IMG/VR virus record: IMGVR_UViG_2778261094_000007
DNA length: 7,594 nt
Strand: one strand, 5' to 3'
Origin: a virus
Lineage: Duplodnaviria; Heunggongvirae; Uroviricota; Caudoviricetes
Notes under the pieces: generated by a model
Told to the model about the DNA's origin: nothing
What the model saw: the letters and a program-made list of their open reading frames with translations, nothing else
The model's database searches: none
Translations under genes and position numbers: made by a program
Shown: piece by piece, positions 1 through 7,594 of the stretch
Layout: the number at the start of each line of letters is the position of its first letter
Numbering within the stretch: position 1 is the stretch's first letter

Positions 1-42
1 TAGTCTAAAAACTAGTATTAAGACTATCACTTATTTAAGTGA
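1..42. promoter_or_regulatory. Two adjacent palindromes: imperfect 26-bp palindrome (1-26, arms tagtct/agacta around actagt) and perfect 7-bp inverted repeat tcactta-tt-taagtga (27-42); candidate recombinase or repressor binding sites
   Basis: Direct reading: 1-26 matches its reverse complement at 22/26 positions; 27-33 is the exact reverse complement of 36-42. Lies immediately upstream of the decapitated integrase frame. Confidence 0.3.
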
Positions 43-242
43 TACTGGTTGTCTGGAGATTCAGGGGGCCAGTCTAAGGAGCAGCCGATCAATCTCGTCA
101 AAACTGGCTTACATGCTTAGGATCGCTCTATGAATTTGCTAAACGCCGTTATGACGGAATACCAGACAGTAACCCTTTTCACGGTCATAACCTCGAAGCA
201 CGTCGCACAATCGAGAGTTATCAACCGTTTACACCTGAACAA

Positions 243-806
243 ATGCAAAAGCTACTTGATGCAGCGGAGCCGGAGATCAGAAATATTATTTTAATGGGCT
301 TGTTTTCAGGATGCAGATTAGACGAACTGGCAAGCCTGAAAAAGTCAGAGGTTGTAACTGTGGAAGGAATACGCTGTTTTTATATCAGCAAGAGTAAGAC
401 TAAAGCAGGGATCAGACACGTTCCGATACATTCAAGACTATCGATTATTGTCGATGAATATTTAAATCATAATTATGGTGAATATTTGTTCCCTCACTCG
501 AACAAAGTAAAAAGAATCGACGGCAAGAAAGGCCCGTTCTATTCTCAAGCATTCTCACGTTTACGTCGTAGCGTCTTGCCAATCGCTACAGATAGACAAT
601 GCTTTCACAGCTTGCGCGGGATGTTTATCACTTGTCTTGATCGTGCCGGAGTGCCTGAACAGCGGATCGGAGCCATTACCGGACATACAGAGCAGAGAGC
701 TAAAACAGAAGCCTTTCGCACCTACTCACAAGGGGCAAGCATTCCAGAATTAGCTGAATATGTAGAATTAGTAAAATATGAATTAAATATTGATTTTAAG
801 GCGTAA
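243..806 (+). CDS. int: Tyrosine recombinase / phage-type integrase, C-terminal catalytic domain only (5'-truncated, probable remnant)
   Basis: Translation carries the ordered tyrosine-recombinase catalytic residues: Arg in FSGCRLDE (315-317), Lys-rich hairpin KSKTK, H-x-x-R in HSLRG (606-617), His in ITGH (684-686), Tyr in RTYSQ (723-725). The frame is open upstream to 78 and encodes linker-like sequence (LGSLYEFAKRRYDGIPDSNPF) but contains no ATG/GTG/TTG and is closed by TAA at 75-77; no Shine-Dalgarno before ATG 243. Confidence 0.8.
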   Translation: MQKLLDAAEPEIRNIILMGLFSGCRLDELASLKKSEVVTVEGIRCFYISKSKTKAGIRHVPIHSRLSIIVDEYLNHNYGEYLFPHSNKVKRIDGKKGPFYSQAFSRLRRSVLPIATDRQCFHSLRGMFITCLDRAGVPEQRIGAITGHTEQRAKTEAFRTYSQGASIPELAEYVELVKYELNIDFKA

Positions 807-814
807 AAAATCAT

Positions 815-832
815 AGGCGCTTCATTGCGCCT
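815..832 (-). terminator. Hairpin between convergent genes (aggcgc-ttcatt-gcgcct), likely intrinsic terminator for the minus-strand cluster and possibly bidirectional
   Basis: Perfect 6-bp GC-rich stem with 6-nt loop, 4 nt downstream of the 218-aa gene stop (839-837); on the minus strand it is followed after 4 nt by a run of six T (complement of A 805-810). It is also 8 nt after the integrase stop. Confidence 0.45.
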
Positions 833-836
833 TGTC

Positions 837-1493
837 CTATTTCACTTCTCCGTCATACGTCGGGAGGGTGTCTTTAGTGGTGCTGGCTGTTCCTGCATTG
901 GTTGGCACTCGGCTTTTTACCTGTCCGCCTGTGCTCTTAGGTGATGCGGTCTTTACAGCAATAGCATTAGTGGTTGCATAGCTCACCAGGCGGATTTGTT
1001 CGAACTGCAAATCGAACTGTAAAGCTGATTCTGTTTTATATTCGTAGTCAATGCCTGTCAGAATCATATTATCAAACGTCTTATGCTCTGTGCTTACAAT
1101 AATAGGCTGTCTGGCATTCATTATTTCATCAAGATAAGCAATAGCCTGTGAACACCTGTTACCGTTCACCCCTGCACTTGATAGCATATCACCACGTAAT
1201 GCTAATGGTGTTTCTGTAATAATGCCTGAAAGCATAAGTTTATTATTCTTGATCCTGACATTATCAGATACATCATTACCATCCTGCACAGGATACGATG
1301 TAACATCGGCAGAACGTGAAACCTTAGTTGCCGGAACAGCGTCAAAAGTAATAGCTTTATAACTGGCTATCGTTGATGCATTTTCGTTATTCAGGTTGCT
1401 ACATATAATGGCAAATCCGTTATCAGATTTAACCTTGCTGTTAGATGTATTAATGTTAGATGTGCTGTTGATCTGACTTTCTTTGATAGCCAT
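837..1493 (-). CDS. Hypothetical protein, 218 aa, Asn/Ser/Thr-rich low-complexity termini; possible virion or tail-associated protein (function not established)
   Basis: Long ORF; ATG at 1493 preceded by AAGGA (1507-1503) with 9-nt spacing; last gene of the co-directional cluster, ending at the terminator hairpin. Confidence 0.65.
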   Translation of the reverse strand: MAIKESQINSTSNINTSNSKVKSDNGFAIICSNLNNENASTIASYKAITFDAVPATKVSRSADVTSYPVQDGNDVSDNVRIKNNKLMLSGIITETPLALRGDMLSSAGVNGNRCSQAIAYLDEIMNARQPIIVSTEHKTFDNMILTGIDYEYKTESALQFDLQFEQIRLVSYATTNAIAVKTASPKSTGGQVKSRVPTNAGTASTTKDTLPTYDGEVK

Positions 1494-1566: not shown

Positions 1567-3468
1567 TTAGTTAACGCTACTCTGTCCTGACAACGTGCTA
1601 AGAATCAGATTCGAACTAAACTGATTGTTGTTCGCTCTGATCTCAGTGCGGATTAAATCCTGAAAGCCGGGACCGTTAGGGATGACGTTAACAGAGATCA
1701 TATCACTCGGCACCGTAACCTGTGCATTCACGTTAACAGGGGTTGCGTATTGACGTTGTAGGCTTACAGTCGGCTGATAGGCTTCTGCTTTACGTGCAAC
1801 AAGGGTTGATCCGTAGCTGTTAGCATTGCCATTAATTAAATCAGTCCACCACCCTGGAACGCCGGACTGTGTTTCCTCACCGCGCACAATACGCCCTACA
1901 TCTCTCGTATCGAGTCCAGTTGCATAACGAATACCTTCATTGATAATCGTTGATGGCGACCATTCCCCATCTGTAACAGCGTCCATAACCTTTTGTGTCT
2001 CAGGTCGGTTATCATTCTCACCACGGCTAAGATGTTTATTAATCCAGCTTGTGATTTGATTCCCGTAAGAAGTCATAGAGGTCAGTAATACAGCGCCTTG
2101 TTTAGCCAAATCCCCGAACGATGCACCAACACCATAAGCTGCATTCTGTAAGGCTTTGCTTTCTTCCGGTTTGAGTGCTGGCATGTTGGCTATGCCATCA
2201 AAGAAGCCCAAAATAGCCTGATTCGATAGTCCATCTGTCAGACGGTCAAAGGCTGTAGCTGTCTTGTTAGCTGCGCGATATTGCTCTTTCTGTGCTTCTG
2301 TCAGTAGCTGCCCGTTGTTTTTCATATCAACCATCGTTTTACGGAACTCTTCCCCATCACGGGAAAACATCTTGAGATAATGGCTGGCATCGTCTGCTAA
2401 TGGTTCGATCAGGGATATGATGGCTTCTTTAGTCATTCCTCGGCGTTCACCTTCTCTCACCACGTCTTGTAGGAGTTGCAGCGGTCGCCCCTGGTAGGAA
2501 GCTATCTTATCTTTGTTCCATGCAAAGGCATTCTGAATATCATTTAATGATCCTTCCCCGCCTCGCCACTCTTTTTTCTTACTATCCCATTCAGCAGTTC
2601 GGCTTTGATGACCAATGCGTTCGTTTAAGTCTTTGATATTATCAGTGGTCTTGTCCGCGCTTGCACTTGATACACCGTTTGCCCTCCCCCAATTAACCAT
2701 TGCAGCCACCTGATTGCTATCGGCACCTACCAGATCGCTCATCTTCTGCAATTCCATACGTTCACGGGCTTTTTCCATTCCAGCAGATACAGCCATACTT
2801 CCTAAGCCAACGGCAGCGCCGCCGATAATGCCACCAACACCGCCCATCATTAACGCGCCACCGCCGCTAACACCTTCTTTGTGGAGCTTCTTAGCAGTAA
2901 CTGGATATACCCCCCCAGCGGCAGCATTACGACGCGTAGCAGCGGCTGCGGCTCGTCTTTCTAATGTGATGCGGTCACGGATCAGGGCATTCATCTTCGC
3001 TTGCGATATAGCGCCGGATTCATAGAGGCGGGTTTGTTCCTTAATGTAACGTAGAGCATCGTGATATTTCTTAATATCCATCCCTTCGCCATAGCGGGAA
3101 TTGTTCTTGATGCCTTGTAACTGGCGATATGATGCAAGGCGCTTGATCTCTGCCTTTTCAGCAATTGAGGCTTGTTTAGCCTGTGCTTTAGCGAGGTTTT
3201 TAGCTTCCTGTAGCTTCTGTTTAGTGCTGGCTTTAGATGCCTGTGTCTCAGATTTAACAGCCTGCTTAACATGCTGATCATGCTGGCGCTGAATCTCTTT
3301 TCCCAGCCTCTGTAAATCTTTCTGACGTGCTGCCGCCACTTGCACAGGTTTGATCCCCTGCATCTTCTTTTGTAGCTTATCCACTTCATTCTTAGCTTTC
3401 TGTAAGCTCTTGAAATCAGTGGTAAATGTCACAACATTACTAATTCGTGAGGCGTTAATTTCTAACAT
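1567..3468 (-). CDS. Large coiled-coil plus glycine-zipper membrane-segment protein, 633 aa; tape-measure-like or ejection/pilot-like protein
   Basis: 1.9-kb ORF. N-terminal ~170 aa are K/Q/A/E-rich heptad-like sequence (coiled coil); aa ~201-231 read GGGALMMGGVGGIIGGAAVGLGSMAVSAG (DNA 2776-2868), a glycine-zipper hydrophobic segment typical of tape-measure and membrane-inserting phage proteins; C-terminal ~400 aa globular. AGGGA 10 nt upstream of ATG 3468. Confidence 0.85.
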   Translation of the reverse strand: MLEINASRISNVVTFTTDFKSLQKAKNEVDKLQKKMQGIKPVQVAAARQKDLQRLGKEIQRQHDQHVKQAVKSETQASKASTKQKLQEAKNLAKAQAKQASIAEKAEIKRLASYRQLQGIKNNSRYGEGMDIKKYHDALRYIKEQTRLYESGAISQAKMNALIRDRITLERRAAAAATRRNAAAGGVYPVTAKKLHKEGVSGGGALMMGGVGGIIGGAAVGLGSMAVSAGMEKARERMELQKMSDLVGADSNQVAAMVNWGRANGVSSASADKTTDNIKDLNERIGHQSRTAEWDSKKKEWRGGEGSLNDIQNAFAWNKDKIASYQGRPLQLLQDVVREGERRGMTKEAIISLIEPLADDASHYLKMFSRDGEEFRKTMVDMKNNGQLLTEAQKEQYRAANKTATAFDRLTDGLSNQAILGFFDGIANMPALKPEESKALQNAAYGVGASFGDLAKQGAVLLTSMTSYGNQITSWINKHLSRGENDNRPETQKVMDAVTDGEWSPSTIINEGIRYATGLDTRDVGRIVRGEETQSGVPGWWTDLINGNANSYGSTLVARKAEAYQPTVSLQRQYATPVNVNAQVTVPSDMISVNVIPNGPGFQDLIRTEIRANNNQFSSNLILSTLSGQSSVN

Positions 3469-3856: not shown

Positions 3857-4888
3857 TTACGCAGCAGATCCGAAGATGATAGCTTGCGGAATGTTGTTTA
3901 CTGGCAGATAAGATGTCTCAGTAACCACAGATGGGAATTGGAATTCATCCTTGATTAGATATTGGTGATGTAACACGGCATCTTGACCTAACTCAGCATG
4001 ACGCACACCAACGCCGCTATGAAGCTGGTAACACTGTGCCGCTTTATCCATTACCGGAACAATTGCGAAACCGTTCTCTCCGATGTGAGCAACAATCTCA
4101 GGAAACATTGACACGTCAATAACAGTGATCCCACCAATCTGGAAAGAGTCATAGGCTGGGTTAGAATCAACCATACGGGTAAACAGGGCCGTAGCACTCG
4201 CATCGCCTGCATATTTCACCATGTCACTGATCAGCGGGTTAGATGACAAACCATCAGCAGCAGCGCCAGCAGCAAAGATAATTACACCAGTTCGCTTTGC
4301 AGCAAGACCAGACCCCAGCTTTTCACTCTGTAAGCGCACCGCTTTACGAATAGCAAGGAACGGGTTAACAGTAGTCGATGCAAAGTCGATAGCGGGTACC
4401 GTGGTTTTAGCCTGACCGTCGAGGAAGTCGAGATCACCTTGTCCGGCATATTCAGATTCAACTTTCAGGCCCAGCAGCGCGGTAATCAGATCCACTTCAA
4501 CACGGTTTGCGTGTGAACGGTAATGAGCCTCAGAGAAATCATTAACCGCTACCAGCATAGCATCAGAACGGTTTGGATATTGGCGGCTGTATTGTTCCAG
4601 GTCACGAGAAGTAACAGCGTTAATACTGCCGACGTGTTTCATCTGGAAAAGTTTGTTTGACCATTCCTGACGTTTAGAGGCGTTCCAGTCGCTTTGAGCG
4701 TAAGGCGAGGTTTCCCCAGCTACCTGCACAAACTGATCGATCAGGTCGGTAAGAAGAATGCTGTTTTCTGTATGATATTGCACATCGAACAGATCGAGAT
4801 TAGTAATCAGGGTATTAAGTGCATTCTCATAAGCAAAAGGAGTTACTACCGCAGTATTAACGCCAAAATATGTTGATAAATCATTCAT
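3857..4888 (-). CDS. Putative major capsid protein, 343 aa (size and position compatible with a lambda gpE-type capsid protein; assignment by context only)
   Basis: Long ORF with a strong ribosome-binding site (AAGGAAAATAATA-ATG), directly downstream of a ~127-aa Ala/Val-rich gene in the decoration-then-capsid order seen in lambda (gpD 110 aa, gpE 341 aa); low Cys, rich in A/V/S/T/D. No sequence-level identity to lambda gpE could be confirmed by eye. Confidence 0.8.
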   Translation of the reverse strand: MNDLSTYFGVNTAVVTPFAYENALNTLITNLDLFDVQYHTENSILLTDLIDQFVQVAGETSPYAQSDWNASKRQEWSNKLFQMKHVGSINAVTSRDLEQYSRQYPNRSDAMLVAVNDFSEAHYRSHANRVEVDLITALLGLKVESEYAGQGDLDFLDGQAKTTVPAIDFASTTVNPFLAIRKAVRLQSEKLGSGLAAKRTGVIIFAAGAAADGLSSNPLISDMVKYAGDASATALFTRMVDSNPAYDSFQIGGITVIDVSMFPEIVAHIGENGFAIVPVMDKAAQCYQLHSGVGVRHAELGQDAVLHHQYLIKDEFQFPSVVTETSYLPVNNIPQAIIFGSAA

Positions 4889-5520: not shown

Positions 5521-5568
5521 AAAGCCCCAATGCCGTAAGAGGTTAATTCTGACCAGCAAAGGGGCTTT
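5521..5568 (-). terminator. Terminator-like hairpin (stem aaagcccc / ggggcttt, ~32-nt loop) followed on the minus strand by UUUUUAUUUG, ending ~30 nt upstream of the first structural gene
   Basis: 8-bp stem arms at 5521-5528 and 5561-5568 read directly; minus-strand sequence downstream of the stem is ggggctttttatttg. The unusually long loop lowers confidence. Confidence 0.35.
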
Positions 5569-6425
5569 AACGTGCGGGCAATTACATAATTGATAAGTTA
5601 AACTATAAGAGGATTAAACATATCAGCAAATACACTTTTTAAATATACTTGATGATATGCTTAAAGGGTGAATAGATACTCCTGAAAACATGCTCTTAGG
5701 AAAACATGCGGAATCAATCAGGAATATCTATTCGGGGCGCGGTGGCCAACCGCTATCTTTCATGGTGTGGATGCACCAGTCAGATTTTAAGGAATCACTA
5801 TTCCAATCTACTCACAGATTAAATTTTTAATAATGATTAACTACACCAACAGTAATCTACCGTTTCAGAAAATCGTTTTTACAACCAAAGCTTATAGATC
5901 CGCATTCTATAAAACCCGTTTTGCTATCAATATTTCCAAAGTTTATTGCACCATTCTTAGCTAAACTCTCTCTGCTTGCGGCTAACGCTATGCAGATGAT
6001 TGTTTTTGACAACAACTTAATAGATTATTCTGTTACTAACTTCTGTCATTAAATAATAGTTTAATGATGTTAGTAAATAGTTATAAAATATAACTATCAG
6101 TGTAAGGCTCTTTAATGTTTTCTGACAAAATAAGGAGCTTTAGGATAAGCATAGATGAAAAATAAGAGCGGGAAGGGCAAGGAGATAACACCTACCCGCT
6201 TTTATCAAAATTAAGCACAATGCCTAACAACATTCATCAACACAACGTAGAAACAATCAACAATCAAAGAGGGAGTTATGATTATTCTAAAACTTCTTGA
6301 GAGATGGAAGGTAATATTTGTTAGAGGTTAATGCCACTCAACCTTTGAGGCTATCACCTTCCATATGCAGGGATTTATGACAGTAGAAGGATTAACACCA
6401 GTCAAAACCTTTTTATCTACCCCTA

Positions 6426-6445
6426 ATTTCATTATATAATGAAAT
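6426..6445. promoter_or_regulatory. Perfect 20-bp palindrome atttcattat-ataatgaaat; candidate operator or protein-binding site
   Basis: Sequence equals its own reverse complement over 20 bp; lies 28 bp downstream of the 102-aa gene stop in the AT-rich spacer; related ttcattat repeated at 6466-6473. Confidence 0.3.
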
Positions 6446-6472
6446 TGTTATAAATGCAAATGATTTTCATTA

Positions 6473-7500: not shown

Positions 7501-7594
7501 ATGTATTGCCCGATCTGGGTAATGACTCCAACTTATTGATAGTGTTTTATGTTCAGATAATGCCCGATGACTTTGTCATGCAGCTCCACCGATT

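Follow-up and report, generated by a model that had tools for sequence, protein, structure and literature searches.

The left end of this locus raises the question of how a tyrosine integrase gene can come to hold a full set of catalytic residues while lacking both a start codon and its N-terminal part, and whether what is left of it is a remnant or a small enzyme in its own right. In the first-pass annotation of the window (by which we mean the whole 7,594-nucleotide stretch of DNA analysed here) the gene was described as a decapitated integrase, and was explained either as an inactivated integrase or as a domesticated small recombinase of the FimB/FimE size class. The features of the fragment are as follows, with catalytic residues numbered as in the full-length protein.

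77–806, + strand: integrase 3′ fragment, annotated here as a pseudogene; nt 492–1221 (last base of codon 164 to the stop codon) of the gene for a 406-aa lambda-type tyrosine integrase
78–242, + strand: codons 165–219, comprising core-binding helix 4 (residues 168–188) and the inter-domain linker, as placed by profiles, the AF2 model and a start-codon scan
243–806, + strand: 187-aa ORF from internal Met220, holding the catalytic domain; a gene-caller artefact
315–317: catalytic R244
396–398: catalytic K271
606–608: catalytic H341
615–617: catalytic R344
684–686: catalytic H367
723–725: catalytic Y380

Translated in frame, window 78–806 is free of stop codons and is closed at its upstream end by a TAA at 75–77, and a start-codon scan of 78–242 finds no in-frame ATG, GTG or TTG, just as the first-pass annotation had reported. 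It had also remarked that the ATG at 243 has no Shine-Dalgarno sequence, and the sequence directly upstream of this codon, TTTACACCTGAACAA, indeed contains no Shine-Dalgarno-like purine run. The profile search with PF00589 that it had proposed returns a match to window 78–806 of 49.6 bits against a cut-off of 27.1 (E = 5e-13), and judged by this score, which is far above the cut-off, the integrase assignment is not a chance resemblance.

All six of the catalytic residues previously claimed for 243–806 (R, K, H-x-x-R, H and Y) are found, and all six are invariant in 18 homologues that are 66–99% identical. R244, K271, H341, R344 and H367 align pairwise with the equivalent motifs in P2 Int and Tn1549 Int, these being weak matches obtained with the full-length protein from a loosened PDB sequence search that gives no match at E ≤ 0.01. 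The tyrosine requires separate consideration, as the Pfam, PHROG and NCBIfam profile alignments end near residue 370, short of Y380. They stop there because of the spacing between the last histidine and the tyrosine, which is 13 residues (H367–Y380, inside the invariant GHT.Q..KTEAFRTYS at window 684–725), about 3 residues longer than in distant phage integrases and to be compared with roughly 9–10 residues in lambda-type, Tn1549 and P2 integrases. In the 18-sequence family alignment there is no variation at Y380 or in the KTEAFRTYS around it, but there is at Y392 and Y398. An alignment of five sequences with distant phage integrases places R378 opposite the canonical tyrosine column, but we overruled this candidate as Y380 is the sole invariant tyrosine among the 18. 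The AF2 model is of low confidence at residues 368–382 (pLDDT < 50). On the evidence of family conservation, and not of the Pfam alignment, Y380 is the nucleophile.

Window 77–806 is identical at 730 of 730 positions to L001 4001–4730, which is part of an intact gene of 1,221 nt encoding the 406-aa protein WP_001296954.1, annotated as a tyrosine-type recombinase/integrase. Of the 185 complete E. coli genomes with this gene, 178 have it in one piece, leaving about 7 without an uninterrupted copy; a full-length reading frame, which the first-pass annotation had considered might emerge on correction of the sequence, is therefore to be found in other strains, but not in the strain of the window. 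The intact protein contains DUF6538 at residues 8–61 and PF00589 at 215–370, and the search for an N-terminal SAM-like domain suggested earlier yields a weak PF02899 match at 117–188 (E = 6e-4). The Xer family profiles align from residue 118 of the intact protein, and residue 4 of the window's translation is aligned to position 63 of the XerC profile.

An AlphaFold model computed from the family alignment (mean pLDDT 72.5) has a three-stranded sheet and a helix at the N-terminus (residues 9–65), a core-binding four-helix bundle (helices at 105–115, 122–138, 151–163 and 168–188) and a catalytic domain beginning at about residue 217. The structures it matches best are full-length lambda integrase chains, aligned over some 400 columns, followed by Tn1549 Int, an archaeal Xer protein and Brujita Int. 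The intact protein is thus a three-domain lambda-type tyrosine integrase, sharing with the heterobivalent lambda Int the N-terminal β-sheet and helix, the four-helix core-binding domain, the PF00589 catalytic domain and the R-K-H-R-H-Y residues, notwithstanding an identity to lambda Int of only 16–17%. The N-terminal DUF6538 domain would then be of the arm-binding type; literature searches returned no paper mentioning DUF6538. A further departure from lambda-type integrases is that the window copy lacks residues 1–164.

An explanation for this missing part is provided by the DNA immediately to the left of the fragment, the features of which are listed here.

1–76, − strand: terminal 76 nt of IS2 (IS3 family), the end upstream of the transposase start; 100% identity
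75–77, + strand: chimeric TAA stop, composed of the final ‘TA’ of IS2 and the ‘A’ at integrase gene nt 492
77–81: AGGAG, the putative right-hand copy of the 5-bp IS2 target-site duplication

Window 1–76 matches L002 2001–2076 at 76 of 76 positions, abutting an IS2 transposase that is annotated on the minus strand with its start at L002 1985. The element in L002 is 1,331 bp long and is annotated as ‘IS3-like element IS2 family transposase’, and the 76-nt match is its end. The transposase is read leftwards, off the window and away from the integrase remnant. Of 5,426 complete E. coli genomes, 4,676 contain the 76-nt sequence itself, with about 20,700 occurrences in all. At the breakpoint the intact gene reads ...CAGAAGCAACG/AGGAGCAGCC... 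(L001 3990–4010, ...caacg/aggagc...), and the window reads ...GGGGCCAGTCTA/AGGAGCAGCC..., the end of IS2 being ...ccagtcta. The breakpoint therefore coincides with the true IS2 terminus to the base. The comparison with full-length homologues proposed in the first-pass annotation thus locates the break between gene nt 491 and 492, with an IS2 terminus upstream of it. In the model the corresponding position, 164/165, falls between core-binding helices 3 and 4. The window copy retains one core-binding helix, the linker and the entire catalytic domain; a complete core-binding (SAM-like) domain, which spans about 105–188 in the intact protein, is absent from the window, which has its last helix only. 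The stretch back to 78 that had been described as linker is integrase sequence in the proper frame, but it is in fact the last core-binding helix together with the linker.

The window corresponds to positions 37–7630 of the NCBI draft contig POAN01000078.1 (GCA_003983655.1; L008), that is, to the contig without its first 36 nt. The first 112 nt of this contig are all IS2 (112/112), and there is an IS1 sequence at the opposite end:

7518–7594: terminal 77 nt of IS1 at the right contig edge, identical to L003 13567–13643, the end of an annotated IS1A

In every IS-free copy of the surrounding island the match to the window ends at 7517 (L015 10262). By these sequence matches the window is a short-read draft contig broken in repeats at both ends, with IS2 on the left and IS1 on the right, and the integrase looks headless because the draft contig ends inside IS2. 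As a separate observation, the junction at 7517/7518 indicates that in the lineage of the window the island carries a second IS hit, by IS1, beyond which the remaining ~5.3 kb of the island would lie, if retained.

The proposal that best accounts for these data is that IS2 inserted into codon 164 with duplication of AGGAG, leaving a split integrase pseudogene at the contig edge, and we place the probability of this reading at about 0.93. IS2 makes 5-bp target duplications. A parallel case is seen in strain Br_190_kylling (L004 3428–4758), in which an IS2-like element lies after nt 918 of the same gene, nt 914–918 are duplicated and both halves of the gene are kept. If AGGAG was likewise duplicated at the window site, the other half of the gene should encode residues 1–165 followed by VDLPLYFQTSVIT, an N-terminal::IS2 fusion of 178 aa ending in ...DDQKQRG-VDLPLYFQTSVIT, and other lengths of duplication would give different fusion tails. 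An exact-sequence look-up identifies the predicted fusion as WP_244578290.1, a ‘DUF6538 domain-containing protein [Escherichia coli]’ present on 3 contigs. Because the predicted fusion exists exactly in E. coli assemblies, there is strong sequence evidence that the gene was interrupted by a simple IS2 insertion, and not deleted.

The course of events would then be that, in one E. coli lineage, IS2 transposed into codon 164 of the integrase gene of an island at glyU, duplicating AGGAG, and that short-read assembly later stalled at the multi-copy IS2, such that the window starts with the last 76 nt of the element and continues with gene nt 492. The N-terminal 165 codons would lie across the 1.3-kb IS2, followed by 13 IS2 codons, presumably in the same genome, and the left junction expected under simple insertion would read gene ...CAGAAGCAACGAGGAG/TGGATTTGCCCCTATATTTCC, the latter being the other IS2 end. 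The 3′ fragment would most likely be a silent and recently made pseudogene, consensus scans suggesting that it is not expressed. Compared with IS2 as it is known (1,331 bp, 5-bp target duplication), the element here has the same terminal sequence and a break at the exact IS terminus, and the 5-bp duplication is backed by the reciprocal fusion protein and the L004 insertion, although only 76 nt of it (112 nt in the source contig) are visible, the body of the element, where two overlapping transposase ORFs with a programmed frameshift would be expected, lying outside both the window and the source contig. For the first-pass annotation this means that ‘decapitated’ is apt insofar as the window copy is without residues 1–164, while ‘interrupted’ fits better now that the fusion has been found exactly; ‘inactivated’ holds, the copy having lost its first 491 nt, which encode the N-terminal domain and core-binding helices 1–3, and having no translation start.

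A related possibility is that an IS2-associated deletion or rearrangement removed or relocated the 5′ third of the gene, and perhaps attL with it, in the genome of the window, for instance when two IS2 copies recombined, and that the integrase is truly decapitated. The window stops within IS2, which puts the upstream sequence out of view, the lineage is rich in IS elements (the IS1 hit in the same island being an instance), and that the N-terminal half lies in the same assembly is something we infer. However, the reciprocal product with its exact 5-bp duplication exists in E. coli assemblies, and a deletion would not leave it. We therefore consider this reading very unlikely; a rearrangement may, though, have followed later in a sub-lineage.

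The insertion reading also bears on the idea that the catalytic part is expressed as a domesticated recombinase, a protein of 187 aa (or 242 aa) acting as a FimB/FimE-like invertase or regulator. The ORF is close in size to FimB and FimE (about 200 aa), which belong to the same catalytic superfamily, and its six catalytic residues are intact. However, the DNA of the remnant is 100% identical to the intact allele; because of this identity the IS2 event is recent, and there has been no time for adaptation. Signals for expression are likewise lacking in the scans performed: besides the missing start codon in residues 165–219 and the missing Shine-Dalgarno sequence at Met220, a consensus scan of window 1–900 finds no promoter-like site on the + strand, and the IS2 transposase is transcribed away from the fragment. 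A protein begun at Met220 would start just 24 residues before Arg I and be without three of the four core-binding helices. Among NCBIfam models there is no FimB or FimE match at E ≤ 10, but only XerA, XerC and XerD, all far below their cut-offs.

The relatives of the fragment point the same way. The best 120 homologues listed are all 335–410 aa long, mostly about 390–407 aa. E. coli, Klebsiella, Citrobacter, Enterobacter and Cronobacter are represented among them, and DUF6538 is combined with PF00589 in nearly all. The members of the 187-aa cluster are labelled ‘partial’, and an identical ORF arises from independent truncations. The intact gene has in-frame starts at nt 1, 52 and 103 and then none until Met220, which is why the ‘187-aa ORF’ recurs on contigs with different 5′ breakpoints. 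Unlike FimB and FimE, then, this fragment is a recent IS cut of a 406-aa gene, without a model match or translation signals, the relatives found all being long. The suggestion of a domesticated FimB/FimE-class recombinase is accordingly one that we abandon as having next to no likelihood, and the 3′ fragment is therefore, as far as its sequence and that of its homologues tell, inactivated and with no sign of domestication.

That the IS2-integrase junction is a chimeric misjoin and the gene intact in the real genome is scarcely credible: the junction does lie at a contig end in a high-copy repeat, where misjoins happen, but it has been assembled independently from different sources (L008, with 2 samples and 7 similar places, and L014, with 3 samples), its reciprocal is an annotated RefSeq protein, and it matches the true IS2 terminus to the base. 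None of the 5,426 complete E. coli genomes contains the junction, which counts against the favoured reading insofar as the two junctions are not seen together in any closed genome; an exact search with 40 nt spanning it gives 0 hits in a species-representative collection, a result of little weight as this holds one genome per species.

The IS2 insertion that we favour can be set in the context of the element to which the integrase belongs. In the IS-free strain D3 (L015) a 13,353-bp element lies between 22-bp direct repeats, TGGAGCGGGCGAAGGGAATCGA, at L015 2226–2247 and 15579–15600, the right copy being inside tRNA-Gly(CCC), at its 3′ end; both repeats are outside the window. The D3 integrase gene occupies L015 2333–3553, about 85 bp inside the left repeat. 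To the left of the island the ETT2 type III secretion cluster ends in a GH15 ‘glucoamylase’ gene, and to the right are actS and xdhABC. By this comparison the integrase is that of a 13.4-kb island inserted in tRNA-Gly (glyU), next to ETT2. The location in D3 agrees with the published ETT2 site, where ETT2 adjoins glyU and a glucoamylase-like gene stands at the ETT2 end (PMC2808357). Literature searches, which took in ETT2 papers in part, brought up no description of the island as a separate unit. As in lambda-type systems, the intact integrase lies beside an att site formed by the 3′ end of a tRNA gene, and the direct repeats, the tRNA 3′ end and the adjacent integrase are shared with other tRNA-integrated islands and prophage remnants with decaying integrases, from which the glyU island differs by its unusual cargo. 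Because the integrase is split, the island in the lineage of the window has probably lost autonomous excision, and its being locked in place, as the first-pass annotation suggested, would be a reasonable consequence.

The same gene has been broken independently in other E. coli lineages (L012 1–29, L009 1–21, L006 1–77 and L005 9343–10564), in addition to the E. coli gene interrupted after nt 918 in L004. These breaks include two IS2 insertions, one at nt 119/120 and one in the opposite orientation at 146/147, as well as a different multi-copy IS at 181/182 and a frameshift of 1 nt. In one draft contig (L007 4669–7147) an integrase 3′ fragment, from nt 612, directly follows a 643-aa variant of the tape-measure-like gene described below, on the same strand, in what looks like an inversion or rearrangement within the island. 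Selection for immobilisation was entertained as a cause of the repeated IS hits and set aside, as ordinary decay suffices and only about 7 of 185 complete genomes are without an uninterrupted copy.

Beyond the integrase fragment the window contains a short hairpin and part of the island cargo.

815–832: GC-rich hairpin with T-runs on both strands, from a consensus scan only

The hairpin lies between the convergent integrase and Dit-like genes and, from its sequence, looks like a bidirectional terminator. The Dit-like gene (window 837–1493, − strand; 218 aa, PF21821) is adjacent to a ‘tape-measure’-like gene (1567–3468, − strand; 633 aa, phrog_16051), and the two products are respectively 60–64% and about 33% identical to those of an adjacent pair in ~150-kb phAPEC8-type myoviruses, the pair being found in Phapecoctavirus, Justusliebigvirus and Dompiswa. 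A 343-aa ORF at 3857–4888 (− strand) has a weak match to a major-head-protein profile (phrog_29, E = 1e-4), but belongs to no Pfam or NCBIfam family, and tblastn against 50,697 phage records yields no match. Between two same-strand gene blocks, window 5531–6472 is a stretch of about 0.95 kb with no ORF of at least 60 aa; with a GC content of 0.31–0.37 it is more AT-rich than any other part of the window, contains two short hairpin-forming inverted repeats at 5670–5733 and 6304–6364, matches no Rfam family and might serve the island in regulation, as an origin or in packaging. Neither the window nor the island proteins gave hits in Rfam, tRNA or PADLOC scans, no known defence-system models being matched, and no terminase, portal, tube or replication genes were recognised in the 13-kb island. 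It is conceivable, but unlikely, that the glyU island represents a hitherto undescribed element, a phage satellite or one that interferes with tails, tied to the ~150-kb phAPEC8-type myoviruses.

An integrase pseudogene disrupted by IS2 is a routine kind of event, and for the 3′ fragment itself no novel reading survives the evidence. The practical lesson is that, when an ORF seems headless at a draft contig edge, an IS end is the first thing to look for; here the very ‘stop codon’ closing the integrase frame is itself partly IS2. Integrated elements commonly lose excision as they decay or become fixed, and beyond annotation the split integrase matters little. The island cargo may merit separate attention, and if the satellite reading were true, the IS hits in the integrase would mark the fixation of a useful element in some lineages.
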